From Spirochaetota bacterium (GTDB lineage Bacteria; Spirochaetota; UBA4802; UBA5550), in the NCBI GenBank assembly GCA_025457915.1, contig JALOTL010000005.1, positions 132,852 to 196,851 on the forward strand: 64,000 nt of DNA, in the 5' to 3' direction. Numbering within the stretch: the stretch's first letter is position 1; every line of letters starts with the position of its first letter. Made by a program: the position numbers and the translations under genes. The notes under the pieces were generated by a model. That model saw nothing but the letters and a program-made list of their open reading frames with translations. It was not told the DNA's origin and made no database searches. Below, piece after piece: positions 3,868 through 53,700 of the stretch.

Positions 3868-4704
3868 TCATGGTTTCCCCGATTTTTTTCTGGCCTTCCT
3901 GTATTCCGAGTCCATTATCATATGTGCGATCCCGGGAAGGTATCGTGTTATTCTCCACAAGAGGCCGGCTTGACCCGGCAGTATATAAAATTTTTTCCGT
4001 GCAATGCCCGCCAGGAGTTTTTTGGCTACTTTTTCCGAGGGGAGCAGGCCGCCGCCCTCGGACATTATGGAAAGCTCTTCAGGCTTCGTCTTGTTTTCAT
4101 TTTCAAAGCCCGGGGTATCGGTGTCGGGCGGATACAATACTGAAAATTCTATATTGTATGGTTTCAGCTCGTGCCTGAGGGATTCGGACAGTCCCACGAT
4201 GGCGAATTTTGTCGGTGTATAGGTCGAATATCCCATAAGACCCATGTATCCTGAAACCGACGAGCAATTTACTATGTAACCGCCTCCTTTTTTCATGAAG
4301 TACGGCAGCAGGACAAGAATGGGCGCGAGCTGGCCGTAATAGTTAATATCCATGTTTTTTTTAAAGTCTTCCATATGCAGATTTTCAATATATTGCGGGT
4401 ATGCATATCCGACGCAATTTATAAGAAAATCAGGCACCCCGTGTTTTTTTATGTATTTTTGAAGAAGCGGTTTCAGCTTGTTTATGCTGGATGTATCGCA
4501 GGATATCAAATCGACGGTCTGGGTATGTTTCAGCCTGTGATCATTGATCTCCTCCATGGCGTTTTTTAATGTTTTTTTATCCCTGGCTATGATGCACACG
4601 CTGCCGCCATTTTTTATTATTTCAATAGCGACTGCTTTTCCTATGCCCCTTGAGCCGCCGCAGACGATTGCCATTTTTCCATTGAACGTCTTTTTTAAGT
4701 TCAT
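3868..4704 (-). CDS. 3-ketodihydrosphingosine reductase-like short-chain dehydrogenase (KDSR family SDR)
   Basis: 278 aa. Rossmann motif CGGSRGIGKAV; YxxxK catalytic region. The KPYNIEFSVLYPPDTDTPGFENENKTKP block matches the KDSR signature YPPDTDTPGF almost exactly. Confidence 0.8.
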   Translation of the reverse strand: MNLKKTFNGKMAIVCGGSRGIGKAVAIEIIKNGGSVCIIARDKKTLKNAMEEINDHRLKHTQTVDLISCDTSSINKLKPLLQKYIKKHGVPDFLINCVGYAYPQYIENLHMEDFKKNMDINYYGQLAPILVLLPYFMKKGGGYIVNCSSVSGYMGLMGYSTYTPTKFAIVGLSESLRHELKPYNIEFSVLYPPDTDTPGFENENKTKPEELSIMSEGGGLLPSEKVAKKLLAGIARKKFYILPGQAGLLWRITRYLPGIAHMIMDSEYRKARKKSGKP

Positions 4705-5198
4705 ATCCAGACCTCGATTTTTATGAAAATTTATTTATAATCCGGGGTTTTATTATTATGATGCATTCCCTTGTGTAATCCAAACCCAATTTAAAGCGGA
4801 ATGTGATAATATTTTTAATCTCACAGCAGATATGCAATTTATTTTTTTTGTCAATATAATTTGACAATTTATTGATGTTTTTTAAAATACAATTTTAACG
4901 ATTCGGCATGTTGTTTAATTTTTTATGTTGCATAAATGATACATAGTATAAATTTTGTAGTCTATTTTTGTAAAAATAAAAAAACGGCAGCGAAAAAATT
5001 TTTTACCCTGATATCACAGGAGTTACGAATCATAAAAAATATTTTTGGTATGATAATTGCATAATATAACTGAAATCAGGAGCCTGGCTCTGTTTTGAAC
5101 TTTTCTTATTTTATTTTGGCTTGTTTTTTTCAAGCCGTTAATTTAATCCGTATGTTTTTTAATGGTATTATACAAATTTTAACAAAGGGTTTAAAAAA

Positions 5199-7046
5199 AT
5201 GAATTCAATTTTAATCGACAGCAAACTTGCTCACCAGAAAAATACCGTGGCTTATACCCTCAAGGCAAAAACTCTGGTTGAATCCCTGGAAAGCCGTCTT
5301 GAATCGAAACAGGATTTTCTTTATATGATGGACAGCAGGAACAGAGAACATCCTTTACCGGTGCCGGTTATAGTCGAGGAGGCCAGGGCGGTCGCCCAGT
5401 TCCTCATGGCAAGAGGACTCGTGAAGGACGACAAGGTCGTGGTCATGCTTCCGACAAGCGCTGATTTTGTTTATATTTACTTCGGGATACTCATGGCAGG
5501 CGGTATTCCAGTACCGGTAAGCCAGCCAGCGGGAACGAATAATCTTGAAAAATATATTGATAATCTAAAACATATTATCGCGAACAGCGAAGCGAAATTT
5601 TTTATTACCTACACCAAGATCAAGGCCATAATTGCCGGGATGGTTGATTCATCAAGCATAAAGGGAAACTTCCTTTTTACAAGCGACATCTTCGAAAACC
5701 CGGTACCTAAAAGCAGTTACAGGGATTACCCCGAGCTTAAAAGCACCGACACCGCCCTGATACAGTATACATCCGGTACCACCGGCATGCCGAAGGGCGT
5801 GGTATTGACCCATGAAAACCTGATCCATAACATACACGGTATAGGCGTTGCCAGCGGAATGAATGATGATTACGTGGGAATAAGCTGGCTGCCTCTTTAT
5901 CATGACATGGGATTGATAGGCGGTCTGTTCACATGCATGTACTGGGGCCTCAAGCTTGTCCTGATGATGCCCGAAGCCTTTCTGCTGAAGCCGCTGTGGT
6001 GGCTTGAGAACATCACCAAATACAGGGTCACGATAGCAGTGGCCCCGAATTTCGGCTACCATTACTGCGTATCCAGGATTTCAGACGAGGACATCTGCGA
6101 TCTTGACCTGAGTTCATGGCGGATAGCGCTTAACGGGGCGGAACCCATCGACAGGGTCACCCTGATGCGGTTCATCGATAAATTCAGATCAAGCGGCCTC
6201 AGAGACGATATTTTCATGCCGGTATACGGGATGGCTGAAAACAGCCTCGCGGCGACATTTCCCGCGATGGAAAATCCTACTGTCGTAAGAAGGTTTCTTC
6301 GCGACGCGCTCGAAGAAGAGCACGTGGCTATTGATACGGACAGCGACGACATAAGGGTGTACGTGGATCTGGCGGCAGTGGGATACCCGCTACTGGGACA
6401 GGAAGTGAGGATCGTCGATGAACACGGCAACACCAGGAAGGAGAGGGAAGTTGGACAGATACTCGTGAAGAGCCCGAGCCTGACTAAAGGATATTACAAA
6501 AACGAAAAGGCTACGCAGGATGCCATAAGGGACGGCTGGCTGTATACGGGCGACATGGGTTTTATAATCGATGAAATGCTTTTCATCTCGGGAAGAATGA
6601 AGGAATTGATAATCAAAAGGGGCAAGAATATATATCCCTATGACGTTGAAAGGATAGCGCAGACGGTGAAGGGAGTGAGGCTCGGGTGCTGTGCGGCTTT
6701 TGCCGTGCCTAACCAGAACCAGGGTACGGAAGACCTCGTGATGGTCTGTGAAAGCCTTTATGAGGACAGGGCGGACCTCGAGGAGCTTGAGAGGAACATC
6801 AGCAGGGAAATAGTCGCGAGACTAGGCATCAGTCCTGATGCGATACTCCTGGTTCCGAAGGGGACTATTCCGAAAACATCCAGCGGGAAGATACAGAGGG
6901 TCCTTTGCAGGAGGAATTACATTGAGGGCAGGCTCATACAGAGCAGGAAATGGAATACAGTGATCCTTTTAAAGACCATCATAATGAGCTACCTTCAGCT
7001 TTTCCGTTTAAAGATAGGCAGACTGATCAATGTTTACGAAAACTGA
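5199..7046 (+). CDS. Fatty acyl-AMP ligase / acyl-ACP synthetase (adenylate-forming enzyme)
   Basis: 615 aa. AMP-binding core YTSGTTGMPKGV; YGMAEN and GDMG motifs; FAAL-like length. Confidence 0.85.
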   Translation: MNSILIDSKLAHQKNTVAYTLKAKTLVESLESRLESKQDFLYMMDSRNREHPLPVPVIVEEARAVAQFLMARGLVKDDKVVVMLPTSADFVYIYFGILMAGGIPVPVSQPAGTNNLEKYIDNLKHIIANSEAKFFITYTKIKAIIAGMVDSSSIKGNFLFTSDIFENPVPKSSYRDYPELKSTDTALIQYTSGTTGMPKGVVLTHENLIHNIHGIGVASGMNDDYVGISWLPLYHDMGLIGGLFTCMYWGLKLVLMMPEAFLLKPLWWLENITKYRVTIAVAPNFGYHYCVSRISDEDICDLDLSSWRIALNGAEPIDRVTLMRFIDKFRSSGLRDDIFMPVYGMAENSLAATFPAMENPTVVRRFLRDALEEEHVAIDTDSDDIRVYVDLAAVGYPLLGQEVRIVDEHGNTRKEREVGQILVKSPSLTKGYYKNEKATQDAIRDGWLYTGDMGFIIDEMLFISGRMKELIIKRGKNIYPYDVERIAQTVKGVRLGCCAAFAVPNQNQGTEDLVMVCESLYEDRADLEELERNISREIVARLGISPDAILLVPKGTIPKTSSGKIQRVLCRRNYIEGRLIQSRKWNTVILLKTIIMSYLQLFRLKIGRLINVYEN

Positions 7047-7066
7047 GCGATACTGAGGGATTATTA

Positions 7067-7318
7067 ATGGCGGATTTCAGGGAAAAGATACAGAATGAAC
7101 TTTTTAAAATCATAGCCAGGCTTGCCGGCACTTCGCCGGACAAGCTCAAGCCTGAAACAAATCTCAGGGACGATCTGGGTTTCGACAGTCTTAAGAGCAT
7201 GGAAGCGATATCCAGGATAACGGAACTTTATGATATAGAACCCGATCTTGACGAGATCGCGGACATCAAGATTTTGAAGGATATCATCGATTATCTCGAA
7301 AAAAAACTTTCCAGCTAG
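7067..7318 (+). CDS. Acyl carrier protein (dedicated ACP)
   Basis: About 83 aa from the ATG at 7067 with a GAGGGA RBS. Phosphopantetheine attachment motif LGFDSLKSME. The 6950 track start overlaps the FAAL gene and is rejected. Confidence 0.8.
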   Translation: MADFREKIQNELFKIIARLAGTSPDKLKPETNLRDDLGFDSLKSMEAISRITELYDIEPDLDEIADIKILKDIIDYLEKKLSS

Positions 7319-7412
7319 AAATCGGCCGCAAAAACGATCCCGTCGCCTTTTTACCGGCAATCAACAGGCGTAGGCGCGGTTCGATTAAAACAATTCATCG
7401 TGGGATAGAAAA

Positions 7413-8603
7413 ATGGCTTTAATCAATGAAACCATAAAAAAACAGTCGGAACTCGTAACGCTTCTGAAAAAGGAGAACATATACACCTACAGTCTCGAGG
7501 TGGGCTCCGCCTGCGAGAACCATATAACAGTAAACGGCAAGGAATGCATCAATTTCATATCCAACAATTACCTGGGGTTCTCAACGCATCCGGCCGTGCT
7601 GGAGGCCGTATCCACCGCGCTCCAGAAATACGGTCTCGGGATCGGCGGCTCTCCACTGGCCTGCGGAACGACCGAGATCCACTACAGGCTGATGAACAGG
7701 ATAGCCTCCGTCTACGGACAGGAGTCGTGCGTACTGTACGCAAGCGGATACCAGGCAATGCTCGGCTCGGTCCAGACGGCCCTGGGCAAGGGCGACGTTG
7801 CCGTTCTCGACGCGCTCGTCCACAGGAGCATTCTTGACGGGGTGATTCTTTCCGGATGCGACACGAGGATGTGGCTCCATAACGACATCGAGGACCTGGG
7901 ATCCCTTCTTGACAGGCTCAAGAAAAAATACCGCAGGATGCTCATCATGGTCGATTCGGTTTACAGCATGGACGGCGACTGGGCCAATCTCCCCGAGCTT
8001 TACAGGCTGAAAAAGGAGCACGGAGCGCTGATTATGATCGACGAGGCGCACAGCCTCGGAGTCCTGGGCAAGACGGGACGCGGGCTCCCGGAGCATTTCG
8101 ATATGCCGAATGCCCCGGACATCATTTCCGGTACGTTTTCAAAATTCGCCGGCGCGATAGGAGGATTCGTGGCCGGACCGTATGAATTCATCGATTACAT
8201 GAAGCATACTGCGTCGCCTTATGTTTTTTCGGCATCGCTCTCTCCACTTATCTGCGCGGGGGTTCTCAAATCTTTCGACCTTCTCGATGAGGAACCTGAA
8301 TGGCGTCAGAGGCTTTGGGAGAACATCAAGTTTTTTCTTTCCGGCCTCGCCGGCCTTGGATTCGATACGGGGCCTTCGAAAACCGCGGTTGTTCCGCTGA
8401 TAATAAGGGACACGATCAAGACGATGCTCTTTAACAGGAAGATATTTGAAATGGGGGTCTATGCCTCACCGATAGTCCACCCGGCGGTGCCGCCGGCAGA
8501 ATCCAGGATAAGACTGGGGGTCATGGCCACACACACGCGGGAGGATCTTGAAAAAACCCTTGACGTTTTTGCGAAGGTGGGAAAGGATCTCGGCATCATT
8601 TAG
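7413..8603 (+). CDS. Serine palmitoyltransferase-like alpha-oxoamine synthase (PLP-dependent acyltransferase)
   Basis: 396 aa, AONS/KBL/SPT family. PLP-lysine motif SGTFSKFAGAIGGF; DEAHS motif; GS-rich glycine loop. Confidence 0.85.
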   Translation: MALINETIKKQSELVTLLKKENIYTYSLEVGSACENHITVNGKECINFISNNYLGFSTHPAVLEAVSTALQKYGLGIGGSPLACGTTEIHYRLMNRIASVYGQESCVLYASGYQAMLGSVQTALGKGDVAVLDALVHRSILDGVILSGCDTRMWLHNDIEDLGSLLDRLKKKYRRMLIMVDSVYSMDGDWANLPELYRLKKEHGALIMIDEAHSLGVLGKTGRGLPEHFDMPNAPDIISGTFSKFAGAIGGFVAGPYEFIDYMKHTASPYVFSASLSPLICAGVLKSFDLLDEEPEWRQRLWENIKFFLSGLAGLGFDTGPSKTAVVPLIIRDTIKTMLFNRKIFEMGVYASPIVHPAVPPAESRIRLGVMATHTREDLEKTLDVFAKVGKDLGII

Positions 8604-8647: not shown

Positions 8648-10192
8648 ATGTTAAAGCCCCTCATTGTTTTGATCATAATCGTATTTTCCCTGCCATGCGC
8701 GGCGGAACCCTTCAGCCCCTGCGGAAGCGACAAGAGCTATCCGGACAGGGGGGTCGGTTTTTACATTGATAAAACCGCTTCCATTAAAATAGAAGAAGCC
8801 CGCAAACAGGTTTATCTACCCCTTAAGTGCGGATTTCTGAAATTCGGCCATACTCCGCATGTGGTCTGGATTAGGATGGAGATCCTTAAAAACTGCCCCG
8901 ATGGGGTCCTTCTTGAGGTTCCAAAACCCATAATTGAAAGCGTCAGTCTCTACAGGATCGATAAGGGAAGGCTTGCATATGAAAGGAACGATGTAGGCGA
9001 TGCCCACCCTTTTTCAAACAGGGAGGTTGATCACAGGAGGATAATATTCAACCTGGCTGACGGGCCTTACGTCATGGAATATTTCCTGAGAATAGAAGCC
9101 GAAACCTATATCAATTTTCCATTGATTTTCTGGTCAAAAAAAGCCTTCGAACACGACGAGATTATCCAGCTTGCCCTGATCTGGATATATGTCGGGCTCA
9201 TGTCGATACTGGCCCTGTACAATATCCTCAGTTATATAACAATAAGGGACAGGGAACATCTGTTCATATTTTTCCTTACTGCCGGTTATGCCCTTCAGAT
9301 GATCGCATGGCAGGGCATAGGGCTGCAGCTGATATGGCCGGAGACTACCGGGTGGACCCACATCCTTCATACGACAATGGCTTCCTACCTTGGAATCATT
9401 CTGCTCTACCTTTCAAAATATTATCTCGACATCAGGAAGTTTTTTTCGCCTTTATCCGTTCTTTTTAATTTCACTGCTGCAGTCGTGGTCTTGAACGTGG
9501 CCGCGGTGTTCTTTTTTTCCTCAACCCTGCTCTATGATTTCATGCATGTCGTGACATTTACAACAGCCGTAGTGATCACGGTTTATTCGCTTATAAAAGC
9601 GCTTAATGGGGCAAGGCACTTGTGGTATTTCCTTACTTCAATATTCGTGTTTCTTGCCGGATACAGCATTTATCTTTCCTATGTCTGGGGTATGATAAAC
9701 GTGCCGCTTATCGAGCAGACCCTGATACCCCTTATGTCGATTATACAGGTTGTTCTGCTGTCTTACGGCCTCACGAGCAAGCTCGGAGTCATGATAAGGG
9801 ACATCGAAAGGTTTTCAAGAAAGCAGAAACTGTCCCGTTCTGATGCCTTGGCGTCGCCCGCCGAGGAAAAGATAAAGAAGGCCATTGAATACATCAACTC
9901 GAACTACAGGTCTGAGATTTCCCGCGAAGGTCTTGCGGCTGAATGCGATATGAATACGGATTATTTCAGCAGGCTTTTTAAAATCTACACCGGAAAAAAG
10001 ATCAGCGATTACATAAACGAGCTCAGGGTCATTGAGGCCGCGGGAATGCTTCGCGAATCCGGGGAGAACATACTTAACATTGCCTACAATGTGGGTTTCG
10101 AAAACCTGAGGACTTTCAACAGGGCCTTTCTCAAGGTTATGAACGTAACCCCTTCCGATTACAGGACCGCAAAAAGCGCCGATAGTATATGA
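8648..10192 (+). CDS. 7TMR-DISM sensor (periplasmic DISMED2 + 7TM) fused to a C-terminal AraC-type HTH domain
   Basis: 514 aa. Signal peptide; about 170-aa periplasmic region; seven hydrophobic helices; C-terminal AraC signature (INELRVIEAAGML...NIAYNVGFENLRTFNRAF). Confidence 0.7.
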   Translation: MLKPLIVLIIIVFSLPCAAEPFSPCGSDKSYPDRGVGFYIDKTASIKIEEARKQVYLPLKCGFLKFGHTPHVVWIRMEILKNCPDGVLLEVPKPIIESVSLYRIDKGRLAYERNDVGDAHPFSNREVDHRRIIFNLADGPYVMEYFLRIEAETYINFPLIFWSKKAFEHDEIIQLALIWIYVGLMSILALYNILSYITIRDREHLFIFFLTAGYALQMIAWQGIGLQLIWPETTGWTHILHTTMASYLGIILLYLSKYYLDIRKFFSPLSVLFNFTAAVVVLNVAAVFFFSSTLLYDFMHVVTFTTAVVITVYSLIKALNGARHLWYFLTSIFVFLAGYSIYLSYVWGMINVPLIEQTLIPLMSIIQVVLLSYGLTSKLGVMIRDIERFSRKQKLSRSDALASPAEEKIKKAIEYINSNYRSEISREGLAAECDMNTDYFSRLFKIYTGKKISDYINELRVIEAAGMLRESGENILNIAYNVGFENLRTFNRAFLKVMNVTPSDYRTAKSADSI

Positions 10193-12432: not shown

Positions 12433-12855
12433 TCAGCTTTCAATGTCTATGGAGGCCCCGGACATGGCGTTTACGGGACACGCAACCTTGCATAGCCCGC
12501 AGGCCACGCATTTTTCCGGATAGAAATTGACTTCCATCGTGCTCCTGTCGATGAAAAGCGCGTCAACCCTGCAGACCGAAGTGCAGGCCCCGCAGTGGAC
12601 GCACCTGTCGTCGTCCCTGTATATCCTGTCCGCAAGCACCTCGATGGTCACGCCCTCGTTCTTCAGGTATATTATGCTTTTTTCGATATCATCATCCGAG
12701 CCCCTCAGCTCAAGGATTATTCTTCCCTCCAGCTTGGGGAATATTTTGGCCTCGAGCACATTGAATATTACATCAAAATCCTTCGCCAGCCTGAATATTA
12801 TCGGTTTATACATGATGTTCTTGTTGAAGATAAGAAGGATGTTTTTCGATTTCAT
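12433..12855 (-). CDS. NIL-domain / 2x[4Fe-4S] ferredoxin (MA1822-like homocysteine-biosynthesis partner)
   Basis: 140 aa. N-terminal NIL-like beta-alpha domain, then two CxxCxxCxxxCP motifs (CVHCGACTSVC, CVACGLCKVACP). Start overlaps the stop of the upstream gene. Confidence 0.7.
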   Translation of the reverse strand: MKSKNILLIFNKNIMYKPIIFRLAKDFDVIFNVLEAKIFPKLEGRIILELRGSDDDIEKSIIYLKNEGVTIEVLADRIYRDDDRCVHCGACTSVCRVDALFIDRSTMEVNFYPEKCVACGLCKVACPVNAMSGASIDIES

Positions 12856-13598
12856 TCACGGGCTCCTTTTTTTAAATCAATCAGTTCAACGTTCCCCTGA
12901 ACGGCCATCCTGTCCCTGCATATGACGATTGCGCCGTCCGCGCCGTTTTTCATCGCGAAGGCAACCGCTTCCTCTGCCATCTCCTCGGATTTTACAAGGT
13001 TGCACGCCGCGGTGGCAAGGGCGTCGGCGAAGGCCGCGTCTTCCGCGATTATCACGGCCGCATCAGCCCTTCCGAAGCTGAAGGAGTGGCCGAGTTTTCC
13101 TGAAGAAGTGCAGATCCCGCAGGGGGTTTTGTCCGGAGTGATTTTAATTCCGATCATATCCTTGAATGAGAACTCGCCGCTGTAGACGCAGACGACCGCG
13201 GGATCGGCAAGCCTCATCCATATGTCCCCGCCGTTTTCTATAATCATCTCCGGGGTTTCATCAAGCAGCGATTCGCCCAGCGCCCTTGCGATAGCTCCCG
13301 CGACCGAGGCCATCGGTCCGACTCCCGCTCTCTCGGAGGCTTCATACATCATGCCGACGACCACGGGATATTCAGCGGTCCTTTCGACCGGGTCGAACGA
13401 TGTCAGAAATGAAGGCTGGATTTTGATATGCCTCCTGATGGATTTCCTCAATTCACAGAGTATCGCCGCCGCCCTTTCGGCCACTTCGCATCCGGACCTG
13501 ATATACAGGTCGCTTGTTTCGATTTTCACCCTGAAGGTTTTCCACCTCGCGGTATCCTCGAAATCCCGGTAAAGTCTTTCCCTGTATCTGGCGTTCAT
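12852..13598 (-). CDS. COG2122 / UPF0280 (ApbE-like, MA1715-like) protein
   Basis: 248 aa. Recognised as the UPF0280 family that co-occurs with COG1900. Translationally coupled (ATGA overlaps) on both sides. Confidence 0.6.
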   Translation of the reverse strand: MNARYRERLYRDFEDTARWKTFRVKIETSDLYIRSGCEVAERAAAILCELRKSIRRHIKIQPSFLTSFDPVERTAEYPVVVGMMYEASERAGVGPMASVAGAIARALGESLLDETPEMIIENGGDIWMRLADPAVVCVYSGEFSFKDMIGIKITPDKTPCGICTSSGKLGHSFSFGRADAAVIIAEDAAFADALATAACNLVKSEEMAEEAVAFAMKNGADGAIVICRDRMAVQGNVELIDLKKGARE

Positions 13599-14773
13599 TT
13601 TTTTAACGGTACAGTCGGGAACTGAATCTGCGGTTCTCCTATTGTGAAGCCGTTTACTATCCAGTCCTTTATCGCCGCGGCGATTTTTTTTGCCATCGGA
13701 TAACTGGACAGCGGAGCGGTCTGAACCGTCCTTCCCATTAATTCAAATTTTCCGGATTTAAGCTCTGCGTAGCTGACTTCGCCGAGCCTCCTGGGTTCCC
13801 CGTTCGGATAGTCGCTGCCGTAATCTATGACCTGGCAGAAGATGTCCCTGTCGGACTGACCGGTAAAATACGCCATTTCCTCGTTGATTATCGGTACCGG
13901 TATGCCGAGTCCGACCATGAGCGAACAGCCGTATCCGGCGATTGAAGCGCCCCTGATGTATTCATGGCTCATCTCCTTCAGGTTGCCGGTGACGGCGATC
14001 GTGCCGGAGCCCTCCCTGGGTATCCCGTTATCGCCCCTCGTTGAATCTGGCGAATGCTGTGTTCCCTGCCAGGAAACCGCGCCGACGGCTCCGCCGAGAA
14101 AGATCTTGGTCCCGACGCCGATGGTCCAGTAATACGGGTCGTTGAGGAGCGGGCTTAGCATTCCGGCCGAGGAATATGTGGCATTTCCCATTTCGGGCCT
14201 CAATATGCCCATGTAGGTGTATATGGTTTTCTGCGACATGTTCACGGCGCAGTTATAGTTCTGGTATGAATTCCTGGGATTGTATAAAAAGGCGTCCCTG
14301 AGGTCCTTCATGGTTATTGTCTTATCGAATTCCTTCAGGGGATAGCAATCGGTTCCGTATGAAGTCGCGTATAGCTTTACCTCCCTGCCGGATATCAGGT
14401 CTTCAATCACGTGTCCTCCCCCGTATGTGAATTTTCCCGGATGGACCATGTTGAGGGGATCGTTTTCCCTTACCTGGGTGGCTCCGATATAGCAATCCAC
14501 TGCGGCGATGCCCGCATAGGCCTCGACGTCATTAAGCCATACCCTTGATGCCTTCATTTTGGGCCTTGTATGACCGAAATTGATAAAGGCGCCGGATGAG
14601 CACATTATTCCGAAGGTGCCTGTCGTGACTACGTCCACCTTTTTAAAAGCGTTTTTGACGCCCTCGTCCGATACAATTTTAGGCATTTCGTCCGCTGTAA
14701 CGACAACGGCCCTGCCGTCTTTTATTTTCCTGTTTATTTCATCGTAGCTTTTTTTTATTTCGAAATCGGACAT
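13595..14773 (-). CDS. COG1900/DUF39 sulfide-dependent homocysteine biosynthesis enzyme (MA1821-like)
   Basis: Track ORF extends to 14857. Preferred start is Met at 14773 (MSDFEIKK...) with a GGGGTGG RBS. Pattern VVVTADEM...TTGTFG...GGGHVIEDL typical of the DUF39 family. Confidence 0.75.
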   Translation of the reverse strand: MSDFEIKKSYDEINRKIKDGRAVVVTADEMPKIVSDEGVKNAFKKVDVVTTGTFGIMCSSGAFINFGHTRPKMKASRVWLNDVEAYAGIAAVDCYIGATQVRENDPLNMVHPGKFTYGGGHVIEDLISGREVKLYATSYGTDCYPLKEFDKTITMKDLRDAFLYNPRNSYQNYNCAVNMSQKTIYTYMGILRPEMGNATYSSAGMLSPLLNDPYYWTIGVGTKIFLGGAVGAVSWQGTQHSPDSTRGDNGIPREGSGTIAVTGNLKEMSHEYIRGASIAGYGCSLMVGLGIPVPIINEEMAYFTGQSDRDIFCQVIDYGSDYPNGEPRRLGEVSYAELKSGKFELMGRTVQTAPLSSYPMAKKIAAAIKDWIVNGFTIGEPQIQFPTVPLKK

Positions 14774-15120
14774 GTTTAACCACCCCGGCTTTAAATCAGA
14801 AGACAGGTATAATCCCATCACGGATATATTCAAACATTTTTTTAATAAAGCGAGCATGTAAAAATCTTATTTTATAAGGAGTAAATAATAATCCTCACGC
14901 GCCGTTTTATACCGGATAAAAGGCCCGAAATGGACGCCGTCAGTGTATATTGATCTCAGCCTGATATAACCCCCGCCGGGTCTTGCGGGATAATTTTTGT
15001 TTTGTTCATCTTGAAAAGCTTTAAAGACTGATGATTGAGCCGATGATTCGCATGCATTATTTATTTATTGACTAATCGCGCGGTTTTTATATAAGGGGAA
15101 CCTGAATAATTATTTTATTA

Positions 15121-15150
15121 AAAAAGCCGGTTTGCCGGCATAACCGCCGC
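15121..15150 (-). terminator. Candidate intrinsic terminator/attenuator inside the 5' leader of the COG1900 operon
   Basis: Minus-strand sense GCCGGcaaaCCGGC followed by TTTTTTaataaaat. The stem is only 5 bp, so this is weak. Confidence 0.3.
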
Positions 15151-15365
15151 GGAGTCAGGCAGCCGGTGTTTTAAAACTGTTTTACCCCGGATAATTCGTG
15201 AAATCTCCAGGAAAAAAGAAAATATGACGGCTCACCGTATTGATTTTTGGTTACCTGTTTTCTGTCTTTATCATGAATAATCCTGAAACGGTTTTTTTTC
15301 ACCGGGGAGCGCATGGTTCAATGGCATCTATAGATTTATGAGATCCGGATCAGGTCAAGGTTGAT

Positions 15366-16232: not shown

Positions 16233-17915
16233 ATGGAGAGAGTCATGAAAAAATTATCCGTGGTTTTGATCAGCATCATGTTTTTTTCCATGGTGAACGC
16301 ACAGGAAAAACCCAATCCTGCGGAATCGCTCACGCCATCCTCGGCTATTTTATACATGAAGACTTCAAGGGTGAAGAAGCTGTTGAGGTCGGTCAACTAC
16401 CTGATAGATAATCTCCTGAGCAAGGAGCAGAGGGACGGCTTCAACAAGGAAAGAAACGAATTCAAAACGAAGACCGGAATTGACTTCCTGGGACCGGAGT
16501 CCCTGAAACAGGCGGGGATTGACCTCGACGGCACGATCAATCTTGCATACTTCAAAAAGGGCAGCGCCGGGCAGGAGAACGTTATTGTATATATTCCGGT
16601 TCTCGACGTTAAAAGGTTTCCGCTCAAGTTCGTGGAGATCATTAAAAATTTCAACAAGGACAGGAATGAACTGGACGTGTATCCAGTGATAACTGATTAC
16701 AAGGGATACAGTCTCTACCAGATACAGAAGGATGTCTTCTGCGTTTCGCTCGACGGATATTTTCTCATAGCCTCCAATGCGGATCTCGTAAAGGGAGTGG
16801 TTGACATTAAGATTTCCGGGAAGGGCGATATAACCTCCGACAAGTATTACCTGGAATATGTTAAAAACGCGAGGCGGGATTATGATTTGAATTTTTTCGC
16901 CAAGAGGGATTTCCTGAAGGAGATGACCTCGCAGGGAAGGAAGGAGGGAAACCAGGATGTCCCGGTCGGGCCCAGCTCTTCGAATCCGTCCGTCAGATAC
17001 GTTTCGCACGAAGGTACAACCCTGGCGCAGAATGAAAAAGGCGCTGAACAGCCAAAAAAGGAATACGCGTTTGAAGAAATAGATTATGCCACTCTCGGCG
17101 CGGAGGTTGAATCAGGCAGGCTCAGGGGGAGCCTTGGAGTCAGCCTGAATAAAAGCAACCAGTCGGTTAGCAATTCGATCGATGTCATAGGAACCGGCAT
17201 GGACGGAAGGGCGGTTTTTTCTGAAAAGATGAAATCCTACATCTACCTGTCGCTGAATTTCAGCGCGATAGAGAACATGTGCAACGAGAAGGGGCCCGTC
17301 TGCAGCGGCTACCAGGAATTCAAACAGAAGCTTTCCCAGGAAATGGGATTAGACTTTTCAAAGGATTTTGTTCCGTATTACACCGGCGTTATCAATATTA
17401 TTGCGGGAAAAAAAGCTGAAATCAAGGAGGGCCGTCCGCAGGCAGGATTCGCGGCCATGCTTCCGATGACAGATGCCTCAAGATCCGCAGCTGTCGTTTC
17501 AAAATGCGGGGAATTTTTAAAGAAGAAATTCAAGGAAAAATCCGGAAAGGAATCCGTCTCCGGTGTGAACATGTTCTGGTACATTGACGAAACCGGCGAC
17601 AAGATGTATCTCTGTTCCGACAGGCGGGGGATATATCTGGGCAACGACAGGGCTATGATGGAGACCATGATAAAATCCGAGGACCTCCAGAAGGCCAGGA
17701 CCAGGAATGCCTTCATGAAAAAATTCAATGAAAAGGTGTTTTTCCTCGCATTCGTGAAGAACGCCGGCTCCACGGTGTCCGAGCTCCAGCTCGCCCCCCC
17801 GGATTCCGGAATGGGGGGATTCATGAAAAGCATAGGTGACGTTTTTCTGATCGGAGAAAAATCAGGCAGGCTGCTGACCCTCGACATCGAGATCGAGATT
17901 AAAAAAGCCAGGTAA
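16233..17915 (+). CDS. Secreted hypothetical protein
   Basis: 560 aa. Signal peptide MKKLSVVLISIMFFSMVNAQE. No recognisable domain. Confidence 0.5.
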   Translation: MERVMKKLSVVLISIMFFSMVNAQEKPNPAESLTPSSAILYMKTSRVKKLLRSVNYLIDNLLSKEQRDGFNKERNEFKTKTGIDFLGPESLKQAGIDLDGTINLAYFKKGSAGQENVIVYIPVLDVKRFPLKFVEIIKNFNKDRNELDVYPVITDYKGYSLYQIQKDVFCVSLDGYFLIASNADLVKGVVDIKISGKGDITSDKYYLEYVKNARRDYDLNFFAKRDFLKEMTSQGRKEGNQDVPVGPSSSNPSVRYVSHEGTTLAQNEKGAEQPKKEYAFEEIDYATLGAEVESGRLRGSLGVSLNKSNQSVSNSIDVIGTGMDGRAVFSEKMKSYIYLSLNFSAIENMCNEKGPVCSGYQEFKQKLSQEMGLDFSKDFVPYYTGVINIIAGKKAEIKEGRPQAGFAAMLPMTDASRSAAVVSKCGEFLKKKFKEKSGKESVSGVNMFWYIDETGDKMYLCSDRRGIYLGNDRAMMETMIKSEDLQKARTRNAFMKKFNEKVFFLAFVKNAGSTVSELQLAPPDSGMGGFMKSIGDVFLIGEKSGRLLTLDIEIEIKKAR

Positions 17916-17948
17916 CAGCGACAAAACGGTCAGGTACGGGCACTGGCG

Positions 17949-18881
17949 ATGAATAAATATCTTTTCGGCCCTGTAAATTCCAGGAGACTCGGGAGATCGC
18001 TCGGCGTCGATATTGTTCCGTTTAAGACATGCCCCCTGAACTGCGTTTATTGCGAGTGCGGCGCCACGACCCGGCTTACCACTGAATTATCGGAATACGT
18101 GCCCACGGAGGAAGTCGTCGCCGAGCTCGACGATTTCCTGTACGCGGGTATTGATCTCGACGTGGTGACCTTTTCCGGCGGAGGGGAGCCGACGCTTCAT
18201 TCCGGCATAGGCCGGATGATATCCTTTCTGAAGGAAAAATATCCTGAATACAGGATCGCGGTACTGACCAACGGCGTCCTTTTATGGAAGCCCGAGGTCA
18301 GGAGGTCTCTTGAAAAGGCAGATATCGTTATGCCGTCCCTGGACGCGGTCGGAGAGGACGCCTTCAGGAAGATACTCAGGCCGGCGAAGGGCATCACCCC
18401 GGGCATCGTGGTCGAAGGAATCAGGGAATTCAGGAAGGAATTCAAGGGTTCGCTAGTGATTGAAATATTCATACTCCCCGGAATAAATGATTCGGAAGAG
18501 GAGCTGGGAAGGATAAAAAAGGCGTGCCTTGAGATCAATCCGGAAAAAATACAGTTGAACAGCCTCGACAGGCCTGGAACCGAATCCTGGGTTGTCCGGG
18601 CGGGCGAGGACAGGATGATTTCCATCATGGAGTATCTCAGTCCGCTCAACGTCGAGATAATAGGGAAGAGCGTCGAGAAGAACCGGCATGACGGAAATGC
18701 AGTTGCGGCTGTTGATGGGATAAAAGCGACTCTGTTGAGAAGGCCGATGACGATTGAGGACCTGCAGGAATATACCGGTTATAACAGTAAAGATCTGGTG
18801 AGGATCCTTGAAGAATTGCATGATAAGAAAATCGTGAAGGTAGAAAATACACCGACCGGATCTTTCTACAGGCTGGCCTGA
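17949..18881 (+). CDS. Radical SAM protein with C-terminal winged-helix-like domain
   Basis: 310 aa. CPLNCVYCEC (CxxxCxxC) cluster; GPVNSRRLGRSLGVD N-terminal motif; GGGEPTL glycine-rich SAM motif. Confidence 0.75.
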   Translation: MNKYLFGPVNSRRLGRSLGVDIVPFKTCPLNCVYCECGATTRLTTELSEYVPTEEVVAELDDFLYAGIDLDVVTFSGGGEPTLHSGIGRMISFLKEKYPEYRIAVLTNGVLLWKPEVRRSLEKADIVMPSLDAVGEDAFRKILRPAKGITPGIVVEGIREFRKEFKGSLVIEIFILPGINDSEEELGRIKKACLEINPEKIQLNSLDRPGTESWVVRAGEDRMISIMEYLSPLNVEIIGKSVEKNRHDGNAVAAVDGIKATLLRRPMTIEDLQEYTGYNSKDLVRILEELHDKKIVKVENTPTGSFYRLA

Positions 18882-34234: not shown

Positions 34235-35095
34235 ATGATTAACAGGGCTGTTTTCTGCATGCTCATTTCAGTTTTTATCGTTCAGGGATTCATACAGGCA
34301 TCATCCGTCCGCGTGCACGCGGAGACCACGGATGTAATACTGGCGACCACCACCAGCACCCAGGATACCGGCCTTCTGGATGAGCTTCTCCCGGTGTTTC
34401 AGAAAAAAACAGGCTTCAGGATCAAAACCATAGCGGTCGGTTCAGGGCAGGCCATGGCCATGGGGAAGAAGGGGGAGGCCGACGTTCTCCTTGTTCATTC
34501 GCCGGAGGACGAGCTGAAGTTTATGAAGGAAGGCTATGGAAAAACAAGAAGGCTGGTCATGCACAACAATTTCATAATTTCCGGTCCGCCTGAAGACCCG
34601 GCCGGCATTGCGAAATCGGCAAACGCTGCCGGGGCCTTTAAAAGGATTGCCGGGAGCGGGAGTCTCTTTATTTCAAGGGGAGACAATTCCGGGACGCATG
34701 CAAGGGAAAAAGCATTATGGAAGAAGTGCGGCATAAATCCCGAGGGCGGTAAATGGTACCAGCAGACAGGGCTGGGCATGGGGCAGACTCTCAGCGTCGC
34801 AGCAGAGAAAAAAGGATACTGCCTGACGGACATGGCGACCTTTCTGTCGATGAAGGACAGGCTGGGAGTGAAGGCGTTCATGGAGGGCGACGGGAGCCTG
34901 CTCAATATATATCATGTTATCGAACTTGATTCTTCGAGGTTTCCAAAAATAAATTCCCGCGGAGGAAAATCCTTTGCGGATTTCATCGTTTCGCCGGCAG
35001 CGCAGAAGATAATAAATAATTTCGGTAGAGCCAGATTCGGACATCCGCTTTATTATCCGGACGCCGGCAAGACTGAAAAAAGCATAGGCAGATGA
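34235..35095 (+). CDS. tupA: Tungstate ABC transporter substrate-binding protein
   Basis: 286 aa. Signal peptide. ATTTSTQDTGLLD matches the TupA TTTS..D.GLL anion-binding motif. Confidence 0.75.
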   Translation: MINRAVFCMLISVFIVQGFIQASSVRVHAETTDVILATTTSTQDTGLLDELLPVFQKKTGFRIKTIAVGSGQAMAMGKKGEADVLLVHSPEDELKFMKEGYGKTRRLVMHNNFIISGPPEDPAGIAKSANAAGAFKRIAGSGSLFISRGDNSGTHAREKALWKKCGINPEGGKWYQQTGLGMGQTLSVAAEKKGYCLTDMATFLSMKDRLGVKAFMEGDGSLLNIYHVIELDSSRFPKINSRGGKSFADFIVSPAAQKIINNFGRARFGHPLYYPDAGKTEKSIGR

Positions 35096-35099
35096 AGGC

Positions 35100-35798
35100 A
35101 TGGATCTGCTTGCTGACGGAGTGATAAGGGCCTTCCGGCTTATTATAAACCTCGATCCGGAGGTCGCCGAGATCACGCTTCTTTCTCTGCGCATATCCGG
35201 ATCGGCGACCCTTCTCGGTCTGGTAATCGGCATCGCGTCAGGTACCGCCATAGCCCTGGCAAGTTTTCCAGGCAAGAGATTATTAATAAGCGTAATCAAT
35301 ACCGGCATGGGTCTGCCTCCGGTTGTCGTGGGCCTGTTCGTGTCCGTAATGCTTTGGAGGAGCGGACCGCTCGGGTTTATCGGGATGCTTTACACCCCGG
35401 CTGCCATGATAGCCGCGCAGACGATCATTGCCGTACCCATCATCGCCGGGATCACGATAGCGGCCATGCAGAACCTTCCCGAGAACCTGCGGCTCCAGAT
35501 ACTCTCGCTCGGCGCCAGCAGGCCGAGAACGGTATGGATGCTGATGCTGGAGGCCAGGCTGCCGCTTCTTGCAGGAGTGATGGCCGGATTCGGAGGCGCG
35601 GTATCCGAGGTGGGCGCCTCGATCATGGTCGGGGGCAACATCAGGGGTTACTCGCGGGTCCTGACGACGGCAACGGTCATGGAAACCGGCAAGGGCAACT
35701 TCGAGCTTGCCATCGCTCTCGGGATCATCCTGCTGATCCTGGCATTCATCGTAACCGCGGTCCTGACACTCGTCCAGCAGAGGGGAGGCAGAAGATGA
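35100..35798 (+). CDS. tupB: Tungstate ABC transporter permease
   Basis: 232 aa. Five or six TM segments. Position between the SBP and ATPase genes. Confidence 0.75.
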   Translation: MDLLADGVIRAFRLIINLDPEVAEITLLSLRISGSATLLGLVIGIASGTAIALASFPGKRLLISVINTGMGLPPVVVGLFVSVMLWRSGPLGFIGMLYTPAAMIAAQTIIAVPIIAGITIAAMQNLPENLRLQILSLGASRPRTVWMLMLEARLPLLAGVMAGFGGAVSEVGASIMVGGNIRGYSRVLTTATVMETGKGNFELAIALGIILLILAFIVTAVLTLVQQRGGRR

Positions 35799-36895
35799 GC
35801 GATATAATCATCGAAGCCGAGAACCTGATCTCGAGGAGGGGCGCGTTCCGTCTTGACATACCGCGGGTGCGGATTTTTAGCGGCGAAACCCTCGCGCTGA
35901 TAGGACCGAACGGTTCGGGGAAAACCACCTTTCTTCATGCCCTGTCTTTTTTGAAAAAGCCGGAATCGGGCAGGATTTTTTTCCGAGGATTCGAGGTCGG
36001 GACCCGTTCAGACGCCTTCCATGCCAGGAGAAGGTGCGCTATGGTTTTTCAGGATCCGCTTCTTTTCTGCGGGACTGTCGAGGACAACGTTTCCTCGGGG
36101 CTCAGGATAAGGGGGATTCCACGCGCGGAGATAAAAAAAACCGCTGGTGAATTGATGGAAAGGTTCAACCTGTCCCGCCTTGCTTCCAGGCCGTCCCGTG
36201 AACTCTCCGGGGGGGAGGCCAGGAGGACGAGTCTCGCAAGGGCCTTCGCGACCTCGCCGGAAATTATATTCCTTGATGAACCGTTTTCCTCTCTTGACGC
36301 TTCATCGAGAAACGGGCTGATATCATTGTTTAAGATGAACATGAGGGAAGCCGGCATTTCGGCCGTAATTGTCAGCCACGACAGGGAGGAGATACTCGAG
36401 CTTGCGGACAGGACGGCCGTCCTGGAAGACGGAAGGCTGACCGACATGGGGACGACGGAAACCGTCCTCAACAATCCCGTTGATGAATACGTGGCCTCGT
36501 TTTCCGGGATGGACGCCGTTTATTCCGGGAAGGTCATCCGCGGCACCGGCGGCTCAATAACCGTGCGCGTCAACGGCATCGAGGTGGAAGCGGTTTCCGA
36601 CGCGGCGGTCGGCGAGGACGTGGTCATCTGTCTCAGGCCCGAAAACGTGATAGTGTCCACAGTGAGGCAGAAGAAGGGGAGCAGCGTCAGGAATTCACTG
36701 GACGGATCGATAACTGACATCATACAGACCGGGCCTTATTACAGGATCCGCATGGATTGCGGAATAAGGCTTCAGTCCTTTGTGACCCCGGTATCCGTCG
36801 CCAGGCTGCGACTGTCGGTTGGAAAAAGAATAACATCATCCTTCAAGGCGACGTCCGTGCATGTGATACGCAAGGGGCGCCGGTATCCGGTGTAA
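35795..36895 (+). CDS. tupC: Tungstate ABC transporter ATP-binding protein with C-terminal TOBE domain
   Basis: Start ATG at 35795 overlaps the tupB stop (ATGA). Walker A GPNGSGKTT; signature LSGGE; Walker B IFLDEP. The track's 513-aa ORF from 35354 is rejected. Confidence 0.8.
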   Translation: MSDIIIEAENLISRRGAFRLDIPRVRIFSGETLALIGPNGSGKTTFLHALSFLKKPESGRIFFRGFEVGTRSDAFHARRRCAMVFQDPLLFCGTVEDNVSSGLRIRGIPRAEIKKTAGELMERFNLSRLASRPSRELSGGEARRTSLARAFATSPEIIFLDEPFSSLDASSRNGLISLFKMNMREAGISAVIVSHDREEILELADRTAVLEDGRLTDMGTTETVLNNPVDEYVASFSGMDAVYSGKVIRGTGGSITVRVNGIEVEAVSDAAVGEDVVICLRPENVIVSTVRQKKGSSVRNSLDGSITDIIQTGPYYRIRMDCGIRLQSFVTPVSVARLRLSVGKRITSSFKATSVHVIRKGRRYPV

Positions 36896-50742: not shown

Positions 50743-53700
50743 ATGAACGCTTCAGTCGAAAAAGAAGCCGGGAGGGATTTCAATGATCTGCTCCTGCCTC
50801 TCGGCGATAGAATCGGCGCTCTTCAGAAGGCTAATAATCTGATCGCCGAATTGAACCACCCGAATATCGACTGGAAGTATGCCGTCGACGGAATCCGCTC
50901 CTACCTTTTCGATTTTTTCCATGACATCGAACCCTACTCTGACAGGGTGATTCCCATACTTCTGCATTTCCTTGAAGATGCCACGGCCCGGGGCAGGTCT
51001 TCCTCCCTGCGCGCTTGCGATACTTATCTGGACAGGTACTCCTTCGTCCTCAGGGAGACGGGTTTTCCGAATCTCGGCCTGGCTTTCAGCGCCCATTTTC
51101 CCGGTTATCTCGACCTGCTTACGGCCGAGTCCGGCAAGGGCCTTTATTTGAGCGGGGTGAACGGGAGGCTGATGGATACAGGATCCCTCTACGAACGCTC
51201 GGGATTGTCCGGGAGGGACGAATACGGCAAACTGGTATCCCTGCTGATATCGCAGTATGAACTTTATATCGGAAGATCGATAATTACGACGGAAAGCGAA
51301 CTGCGGGAACTCGGTGGAACGCCGGAACTGACGGGCCTGCTGTCGGACGTTTCCGCCGAATCATATTCCGGAAGGCTCAGGGAGATCAGGGCGCTCGCGG
51401 ATGCAGGGCGGGGAGATTTTTTCGCCGCGGCCTCGGGGCTGGTTGATTTTTCGCACAATGCGAGGTGCTGGGAAAGGGCCTGCGCGTATGTGAGGAAGGC
51501 CTTCGAAGAAGGAAATATATCAGGAGACCCGGTGATCATGGGGATACTCTCGTACCTCGTTAGGAAGTCGAACGAGGGCGGCGACAGGGACCTCCAGATG
51601 CACATATCCAGGACGGCAGCTGCCGCCTGCTCGATATTCTCCTCCAATACCGACGTTCTCAGGGGTATAATTGACCTGGTAATGCCCGCGCTTCTCGCGG
51701 AAATAGACAGGGGCGGGAATTATTTTTCCGCGTTTTCCACCATATACAACATCGGCAAGACCGTGGTCGGTTCCGGCAAGAAAACGATAATCGACTATTT
51801 CGTAGACTTTCTCGTGAAGTCTAAGTTCTGCTTCCCGGAGTTTTCCGGGATCGCCCAGGACTGGTCCGTGATAGTGAACTCGAGCCACCTGGAAAACATC
51901 AGGACATGGATGAAGCTCATCGAGCTCAACCCGACGCTCATGAAGAGGCTGGCGTCCAGCCTCATAGTCAACCTGAAGCTCGGCGGCGTTTTCCTGAAGG
52001 ACACCGACGTTTTCCAGAGGGACGTGTCGAGGCTCCTGAACAGCGATTACTCTGACGTCTTCTACCTGGTGATATCGCTTGCCGCTGTTTTTCCGGCCTT
52101 CTATCACGACATCGGGGCCACCGGCGACATCAGGTCCTACACCGAAAGGATAGACACGAACCATAAAATGGACGACCTGATCCATTTCCTGCGCAAGCAG
52201 GTGCACGTCGAGTCCTCGAGCAGGACAGTCTACCTTTTCCAGCGGGTGATGGAATTCTGGCTGACCGGCGACAGCGGCCTGCTGGAGGGAATGGTGCCGC
52301 AGGAGGTCTTCGAAAGGCTCGACGGTTTTTTTGAAATGATGAATCTCGACTCGGACCCGGCCGCCCGCGCCGTCCTCGACGGCGCCAGGAGCGTTTTCGA
52401 AGAACTCTCCGGGCTGAGTTTCTGGGATTTCCTGGACAGGGTCGACGGCGGCGCCTTCCTGGAAGCGGCCCGGCGCCTGGAGCCGGCCGGCATAGGTCCC
52501 GGCGAAAAGGAAAGGGCGCTGCGGCATTTCGCCGGGTACTTCGAATCGCGGAACCCGGCGGAGATGACCAAGATGCTGGCCTGCATGAAAAACAGGTTCG
52601 GCATCGACGCGTCAGGCAGGGATATGTGGAAGCGCCTTTACGAGATACCGGACGACGAGTTCAGGGGCCTTTTCGAGGACGTAAAGGGCGAAGAGTTTTC
52701 CAGGGTCAACGTTGAAAAATTCATCACCTTCCTGCACGTGTACAGGATGCTCTTCGACAAGTATAATTTCTCCGAGGTGAGGGGCGTCGAGAAGCTTGAA
52801 TCATACGCCGCGGAAAACCTCTTCGAACCGGGCGCGGGTTTTTTCGAAGCCCTGAGGAAGGGCGGCGCGTTCGAATCCCTCGACGCGCTCCTGTCGCTAC
52901 AGGACTCGCTGAAGTCCGGCGTGCTGCTGGGCGGGAAGACCTTCGAGCCGCTCGATACCATCGAGTTCAAGAGGCACATAGCGTTCGGCATCCCTTCCAT
53001 GTACGGTTCATACAAGGAGAAAAAGTTCGACACCCTCAAGGTTTTTTTTCACACCAACCTGATAATCGTGGGCCTTTTCGAGAGGTCATACGCCTCGCTC
53101 GGCATCATGAAGGGCGGCCCGGTGGATTACGCCGAGACCGCCGGGTTCATCCGGCTGTTTTTCAGGAAGTTCCTGATCGACGGGCTCATGAACCAGGAAA
53201 TGGTCACGGTCATAAGCCTGCTGGAGACGCCGAACCTCAGGATTTCCCAGTTCAGGGACATCGTCAACCACCTGCTCGGAATACACGGGGAGATATCCGA
53301 CAGGTTCAACGAGACCTTCAAGGACGTCTGCCGCGAGGCCATAAAAAACATAGGCATCGAAAGGATTTCCAGGAGGTTCCTGCCCGACGAAAGCGAGAGC
53401 AGCGTCGACGTGGTCGTCGACAGGTTCCTCAGGGACCAGATAATGCAGACGCCCCTCCTCCAGCTTTTCGACAACCTGCTGATAAGGCTCAAGGAGCGCC
53501 TCGCGACCGAGCTGGCGATGAGGGGGGACGGCGTCTGTCTCAACCCGGTTTCAGGTCCCCCGGCAAGGGGCGGGATAGCCTTCCGGATAGGAAAGACCCC
53601 GGCCGCGGGGGTTGCCGCGCCGGTGTGGGAGACAGGCGGGAAGGCGTACGGGCTCCTCTTTGCGTCCGAAATAGAAGGCATCAGGATCCCGGAGGGTTTC

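Follow-up and report, generated by a model that had tools for sequence, protein, structure and literature searches.

Homocysteine can be made by a sulfide-dependent, homoserine-independent route in which a DUF39 protein of the COG1900 family works together with a NIL-domain ferredoxin and a COG2122 protein. We describe here a three-gene operon that very probably encodes this known route in a spirochaete: it lies on the minus strand of a 64,000-nucleotide stretch (64 kb, hereafter "the window") of contig JALOTL010000005.1, which belongs to a Spirochaetota metagenome-assembled genome (MAG; assembly GCA_025457915.1). What we show ourselves is to which families the proteins belong, which signature residues they carry, how the operon is built and how far it is conserved; for the reaction as such, and for the requirement for each of the three proteins, we rely on the published genetics and biochemistry of Desulfovibrio and Methanosarcina.

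The closest described system is that of Desulfovibrio, with the same three protein families in a bacterium (Dde_3007/DvMF_1464/DVU2938; DvMF_0262; DvMF_0044/DVU1097). In D. alaskensis, the DUF39 protein Dde_3007 is needed for homocysteine synthesis: mutants are rescued by homocysteine and by none of the O-acylhomoserines, and the adjacency of the DUF39 gene to ferredoxin and COG2122 genes was noted at that time (Kuehl 2014). In D. vulgaris Miyazaki, the DUF39 protein, the NIL/ferredoxin and the COG2122 protein are all required, the mutants being methionine auxotrophs that methionine rescues, and D. vulgaris can do without homoserine dehydrogenase for methionine (Price 2018). A conserved DUF39 cysteine bears a persulfide in vivo, COG2122 is needed for efficient sulfide use, and the reduction of a thioaldehyde intermediate by the NIL-ferredoxin is a published proposal. 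The Desulfovibrio DUF39 protein is devoid of a CBS domain, like the window protein. The two systems differ in layout, as the three genes of D. vulgaris Miyazaki appear scattered (their locus tags are not adjacent) whereas those of the window make up a single operon in which stop and start codons overlap, and in host, the window coming from a Spirochaetota MAG that is not a sulfate reducer, unlike Desulfovibrio.

In the archaeon Methanosarcina acetivorans, MA1821-MA1822 and MA1715 provide the same COG1900a protein with two cysteines, a separate protein with NIL and ferredoxin parts, and a COG2122 helper in sulfide trafficking; judging by locus number, MA1715 is not adjacent to MA1821-22. Published schematics draw the archaeal L-ASST (short for L-aspartate semialdehyde sulfurtransferase) with a CBS domain, proposed to sense S-adenosylmethionine (SAM), that the window protein lacks. 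Another bacterial DUF39-pathway locus, Dehalococcoides DET0921:DET0919, is made of three consecutive genes and is known to us by its citation in Price 2018. A more distant member of the COG1900 superfamily, the coenzyme M synthase MMP16/ComF (COG1900d, TIGR03287), carries out an analogous aldehyde-to-thiol chemistry. The earlier note on this DNA had presented the operon as a methanogen-type module in a bacterium; there is nothing unusual in this, the DUF39 route having been shown in D. alaskensis in 2014 and in D. vulgaris Miyazaki in 2018.

The window operon consists of gene 1 (13595..14773 after correction of its start, 392 amino acids (aa)), predicted to encode the DUF39/COG1900a catalytic subunit of L-ASST; gene 2 (12852..13598, 248 aa), encoding a UPF0280/COG2122 protein with a short ApbE fold; and gene 3 (12433..12855, 140 aa), encoding a NIL-domain protein with a 2x[4Fe-4S] ferredoxin, of the MA1822 type. 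Both junctions are 4-bp ATGA stop/start overlaps, as seen in the list of open reading frames (ORFs) and in the sequence itself, in agreement with the coordinates and the translational coupling put forward in the earlier note. The three identities it proposed (COG1900a, COG2122/UPF0280 and NIL-ferredoxin, in one tight operon) stand as well, and only the 5' end of gene 1 has to be moved, from 14857 to 14773.

Indeed, gene 1 was listed as an ORF of 420 aa (14857..13595, minus strand), the first 28 codons of which are covered by none of the 120 best homologues out of at least 8000; these 120 proteins are 392-406 aa long and cover 92-95% of the 420-aa query. The identical protein at NCBI is 392 aa long (the JGI gene caller chose 420 aa), a Shine-Dalgarno-like GGGGTGG can be read in the sequence 6 nt 5' of the ATG at 14773 (14780..14786, minus strand), and a promoter-like motif, an A-tract followed by TTGAAT at 14843..14828, falls inside the 28-codon extension. 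Because of these observations taken together, the start of gene 1 is most likely the ATG at 14773 and not that at 14857, and the extension is probably left untranslated. The products of genes 1 and 2 are 100% identical to proteins of a Spirochaetes MAG at NCBI, and an identical locus is also found on a JGI metagenome contig, where gene 1 is filed as 420 aa. Seen as a whole, the window resembles a normal stretch of chromosome from a spirochaete and encodes FliG, Mfd, sigma-54, HPr kinase, PriA and CTP synthase.

Gene 1 matches the HcyBio profile PF01837 over almost its whole length (profile positions 1-345 of 349; E=1.1e-150, 501.8 bits for a cut-off of 26.2), and the identical NCBI protein is named "homocysteine biosynthesis protein [Spirochaetes bacterium]". 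Pfam searches found neither a CBS nor a ferredoxin domain at its C-terminus. The family is a large one: a word-index search gave at least 8000 scored candidates, all with E<=1e-20, and 878 clusters exist at 50% identity. One has to keep in mind that COG1900 comprises no fewer than two groups of different function: L-ASST (COG1900a), leading to homocysteine, and MMP16/ComF (COG1900d), leading to coenzyme M. The mark of COG1900a is a pair of cysteines that are nearly universal, Cys54 (essential) and Cys131 in MA1821; the cysteines of MMP16 are located elsewhere.

Both signature cysteines are found in gene 1: Cys58, in TGTFGIMCSSG (codon 14600..14602, minus strand), stands in the column of the essential Cys54 of MA1821, and Cys143, in YGTDCYP (codon 14345..14347, minus strand), in that of Cys131. 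The two residues are invariant among 30 close homologues. In a subfamily alignment of gene 1 with near-full-length representatives of the 50%-identity clusters (31-56% identity), they form the only two cysteine columns conserved across the closer members, and both are lost in paralogues of 31-39% identity. The earlier note had held that loss of the conserved MA1821 cysteines would speak against its assignment; both are retained. The link to MA1821 was made through the CBS-fused representative P0122 and the published residue spacing: P0122 has its cysteines at positions 58 and 135, and the 77 residues from one to the other are also the distance from Cys54 to Cys131 in MA1821. Compared with M. 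acetivorans L-ASST, the window protein has an 8-residue insertion between the two cysteines. P0122 itself (504 aa) consists of DUF39 followed by a CBS pair and keeps both signature cysteines; two other representatives, P0124 and P0130, have DUF39 fused straight to a 2x[4Fe-4S] ferredoxin, with no NIL domain, and keep both cysteines too.

Could gene 1 act on another aldehyde, as MMP16/ComF does on sulfoacetaldehyde, and make a thiol other than homocysteine? The existence of functionally distinct subfamilies within COG1900, the partial match of gene 1 to the MMP16 model TIGR03287 (E=5e-38) and the possibility that L-ASST compensates for the loss of MMP16 speak for it, yet the TIGR03287 match reaches only 130.5 bits for a cut-off of 363.95, and the gene 1 cysteines stand in the columns of COG1900a and not in those of COG1900d. 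Moreover, MMP16 has its ferredoxin fused and its conserved cysteines, placed elsewhere, are non-essential, whereas the partner of gene 1 is a separate NIL-ferredoxin like MA1822; no coenzyme M biosynthesis gene is found nearby, and the closest named relatives of gene 1 among the matches listed are Desulfothermus proteins called "homocysteine biosynthesis protein" (73-74% identity). We consider this alternative highly improbable. Given that both signature cysteines are kept and that the MMP16 model scores far under its cut-off, the sequence places gene 1 on the homocysteine side of COG1900, namely COG1900a.

The product of gene 2 is best described by its relationship to DVU1097 of D. vulgaris, the structure of which is known (PDB 2o34): phmmer aligns the two over residues 20-239 (E=3.3e-37), and the AlphaFold2 model of gene 2 (pLDDT 89.5) superimposes on 2o34 with a TM-score of 0.81 (Foldseek E=6.6e-22). 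It matches NCBIfam NF003323 (PRK04334) with E=1e-74 and 251.1 bits, just under the cut-off of 271. The local Pfam copy, which does not hold PF27030, gave no match at E<=0.01, ApbE (PF02424) included; the identical NCBI protein, "UPF0280 family protein [Spirochaetes bacterium]", carries PF27030 (AbpE_bact) in its precomputed annotation. A cysteine in an invariant C-T-S-S motif, Cys163 (codon 13110..13112, minus strand), is invariant in a 30-sequence alignment (A1) and is aligned to a cysteine of 2o34/DVU1097.

The term "ApbE-like" used in the earlier note for gene 2 is thus right for the fold and wrong for the family. The model resembles the ApbE/Ftp flavin transferases with TM-scores of 0.5-0.58 (Foldseek E ~5e-7), at 11-14% identity and with a protein 60-80 residues shorter, hence a likeness in fold only. 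This resemblance, and the fact that Kuehl 2014 first suggested such a role, would be the reasons to see in gene 2 a true ApbE-type flavin transferase, with a partner to flavinylate, instead of a sulfur relay. We find this very unlikely in view of the missing Pfam ApbE match, the low identity and the reduced length, and also of the behavior of COG2122 mutants, which are methionine auxotrophs and whose fitness tracks that of DUF39 mutants at r=0.98. The invariant Cys163 likewise fits sulfur chemistry and suits a role in sulfur relay better than one in flavin transfer. By analogy with the characterized systems, gene 2 is a probable sulfide or persulfide relay to the DUF39 subunit.

Gene 3 combines the two parts expected of an MA1822-type protein. 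Residues 5-73 match the NIL profile PF09383 (E=1.7e-15, 57 bits for a cut-off of 24), and the remainder gives Fer4 (twice), Fer4_21 and Fer4_7 matches, with eight cysteines in two CxxCxxCxxxC motifs (Cys 85/88/91/95 and 116/119/122/126; 12478..12603, minus strand); this bears out the description of a NIL protein with two [4Fe-4S] motifs given from the letters alone. The NIL domain has been proposed to bind methionine, by analogy with MetN. The best PDB matches of the NIL half of gene 3 are indeed C-terminal domains of MetN; weak as they are (E=0.26-0.87), they are suggestive of methionine binding.

We then considered how far this arrangement is conserved, in a survey of 80 loci from one-genome-per-species contigs. 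The order DUF39-UPF0280-NIL-ferredoxin on one strand is found in 55 of the 58 closest loci, which belong to Spirochaetota/Leptospirales, Desulfohalobiaceae and Desulfobacterales. The three exceptions are loci cut by contig ends, so all those with enough downstream sequence (55/55) keep the order; the locus L062 shows it too. By comparison, 21 Syntrophales-type loci have a DUF39 gene with neither UPF0280 nor NIL-ferredoxin within 4 kb. The relatives have short spacers between the three genes, and the double 4-bp overlap is therefore particular to this genome.

The DUF39 proteins of Desulfohalobiaceae/Desulfothermus are 67-75% identical to the window protein and those of most Spirochaetota 68-79%, and the Desulfohalobiaceae/Desulfothermus loci (L031, L036, L042, L045, L047, L048, L050 and L051) share the three-gene order with the window. 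For Desulfothermus the value is 73-74%, against 72-79% for most spirochaetes. With identities on a par and one shared gene order, the operon may have passed as a unit from one of these groups, Desulfohalobiaceae and Spirochaetota, to the other.

Taken together, these data argue strongly for the known L-ASST route. In the mechanism we propose, the DUF39/COG1900a protein would load sulfur on its conserved cysteines (Cys58 and Cys143) and hand it on to L-aspartate semialdehyde, at the aldehyde carbon; the electrons reducing the thio-intermediate to homocysteine would come from the NIL-ferredoxin, via its two [4Fe-4S] clusters; and the UPF0280/COG2122 protein, with its truncated ApbE fold and invariant cysteine, would capture sulfide or relay it to the DUF39 subunit. 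The persulfide/thioaldehyde chemistry, the COG2122 role and the NIL feedback discussed below are what we infer from the characterized systems. The active-site chemistry in particular has to be inferred, since a PDB search found no solved DUF39 structure and the gene 1 model, of moderate confidence (pLDDT 74), has no PDB neighbor.

That orphan model is one of several points that weigh against our interpretation. The mapping of the gene 1 cysteines onto those of MA1821 is indirect, as it runs through P0122 and the published spacing, and gene 2 scores slightly under its equivalog cut-off (251 versus 271 bits). The host is known as a MAG, and the function proposed for the operon comes from other organisms. 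Finally, L-ASST may act on sulfoacetaldehyde too according to a 2025 study, in which case the substrate specificity of the family would not be absolute.

What the operon implies for methionine metabolism is a separate matter. The earlier note had suggested that the organism makes methionine without MetA/MetX/MetY-type chemistry; this does not follow from the presence of the trio alone, because M. acetivorans carries both routes. Indeed, its L-ASST deletion has no methionine phenotype on account of the second pathway. The partial rescue of D. vulgaris mutants by cysteine, which suggests a minor alternative route, goes in the same direction, and the contig, at least 200 kb long, extends well beyond the 64 kb of the window. 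The trio could thus be a real L-ASST that is redundant or conditional (at high sulfide, for example), alongside a canonical O-acylhomoserine sulfhydrylase or transsulfuration route, in which case the earlier conclusion on methionine metabolism would be wrong and the gene identities right. We regard this as possible, though rather unlikely, since the DUF39 pathway is the only recognizable route in Desulfovibrio and Dehalococcoides. The window holds no met gene of any kind, canonical ones included, and no asd either, which is weak evidence and says little either way. Redundant or not, the operon is best read as an L-ASST operon.

Regarding its expression, a putative promoter was located on the minus strand 5' of gene 1 (14805..14843), with the A-tract and TTGAAT already mentioned (-35, 14833..14828), a weak -10 (TATACC, 14811..14806) and a 16-nt spacer. 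A scan for the sigma-70 consensus did not report it, because the final T is missing from its -10. Of 54 related loci, 31 have the motif A{4,}N1-6TTG[AT][ACT]N within 150 nt 5' of the DUF39 ATG, compared with 6% of background 150-nt segments. With a start at 14773, the 5' untranslated region would measure a few tens of nucleotides at most. A riboswitch or structured leader RNA was considered and ruled out: no Rfam match reached the gathering score, whether in the window or in any of 16 related loci, relaxing the search to E<=10 gave only chance-level matches in the leader, the leader does not fold better than shuffled sequence (z = +0.95 and +0.29), and its sequence is not conserved, blastn against the 80 loci returning chance matches only.

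Since gene 1, unlike the archaeal enzymes, has no SAM-binding CBS pair and a riboswitch is missing from the operon, it is plausible by analogy that feedback acts via the NIL domain of gene 3. One may go further and imagine the three proteins as one obligate stoichiometric complex, controlled solely post-translationally by methionine on NIL, in an operon that may have been exchanged between Desulfohalobiaceae and Spirochaetota. The overlap of stop and start codons in this genome and a gene order that is fixed in the clade hint at such a complex, and the missing CBS pair and riboswitch at such exclusive control; we hold this composite picture to be doubtful.

The divergent intergenic region 5' of the operon (14858-15365, about 500 nt) contains two terminator-like hairpins, neither of them 3' of an annotated gene: one on the minus strand at 15139-15126, GCCGGCAAACCGGC followed by a T-run, the other on the plus strand at 14972-14989. 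The ORFs of the region are all small (24-47 aa), Rfam gives no match in it, and its folding energy is not unusual.

On the other side of this region, divergent from the operon (16233-18881, plus strand), are genes for a 560-aa protein without a family and a 310-aa radical SAM protein without an equivalog. They are found upstream of the operon in 36 and 31 Spirochaetota loci, respectively, and in none of the 8 Desulfobacterota-type or 22 Syntrophales loci; we thus rejected a functional link with the operon, this Spirochaetota-only association being probably lineage synteny. The 232-aa downstream gene and the lipase-like, AraC-type and 255-aa upstream genes were also discarded as operon partners; no related locus conserves any of the four, so they do not belong to the system.

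Other features of the window deserve a brief description. An SDR gene (3868-4704, minus strand), an AMP-binding acyl ligase gene (5199-7046) and an alpha-oxoamine synthase gene (7413-8603) lie together at 3868-8603; the best NCBIfam match of the synthase is serine palmitoyltransferase (371 bits for a cut-off of 640), with Kbl/BioF close behind, and this spirochaete may thus have a cluster of sphingolipid or aminolipid type. A gene at 8648-10192 (plus strand) encodes a 7TMR-DISM extracellular and membrane sensor fused to an AraC-type helix-turn-helix, that is, a one-component membrane-bound regulator. A PBP_like_2 binding protein, a permease and an ABC ATPase with a TOBE domain (34235-36895, plus strand) form an importer of the molybdate/tungstate/sulfate type; the ORF listed for the ATPase (513 aa) shares about 445 nt with that of the permease, which probably means that its start was placed too far upstream. 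In a 1452-aa protein (50743-55101, plus strand), only the C-terminal 420 residues or so are matched, by PPDK_N and the PEP-utilizers mobile domain; Pfam assigns nothing to the first 1000 or so. Lastly, a gene at 56298-57536 (minus strand) encodes a VKOR domain fused to a DsbA/thioredoxin domain.

The pathway being already proven in bacteria, the finding is correct but ordinary and leaves knowledge of the pathway unchanged. These proteins, like thousands of their relatives, already bear the name "homocysteine biosynthesis protein", "L-aspartate semialdehyde sulfurtransferase" or "UPF0280 family protein" at NCBI and JGI. None of the papers covered by our literature search discusses the DUF39 pathway in spirochaetes, a silence that is a gap in commentary and not in knowledge; it also goes unmentioned in the main texts of GapMind 2020 and GapMind 2026. 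The operon is nevertheless a compact three-gene version of the pathway, with no CBS domain and no gene fusions, and could be a handy starting point for reconstituting L-ASST in vitro and for solving its structure, both still to be achieved, given that no DUF39 structure is solved. As for the organism, automated pathway tools that ignore the DUF39 route would miscall this spirochaete a methionine auxotroph, a problem raised by Price et al. 2018.

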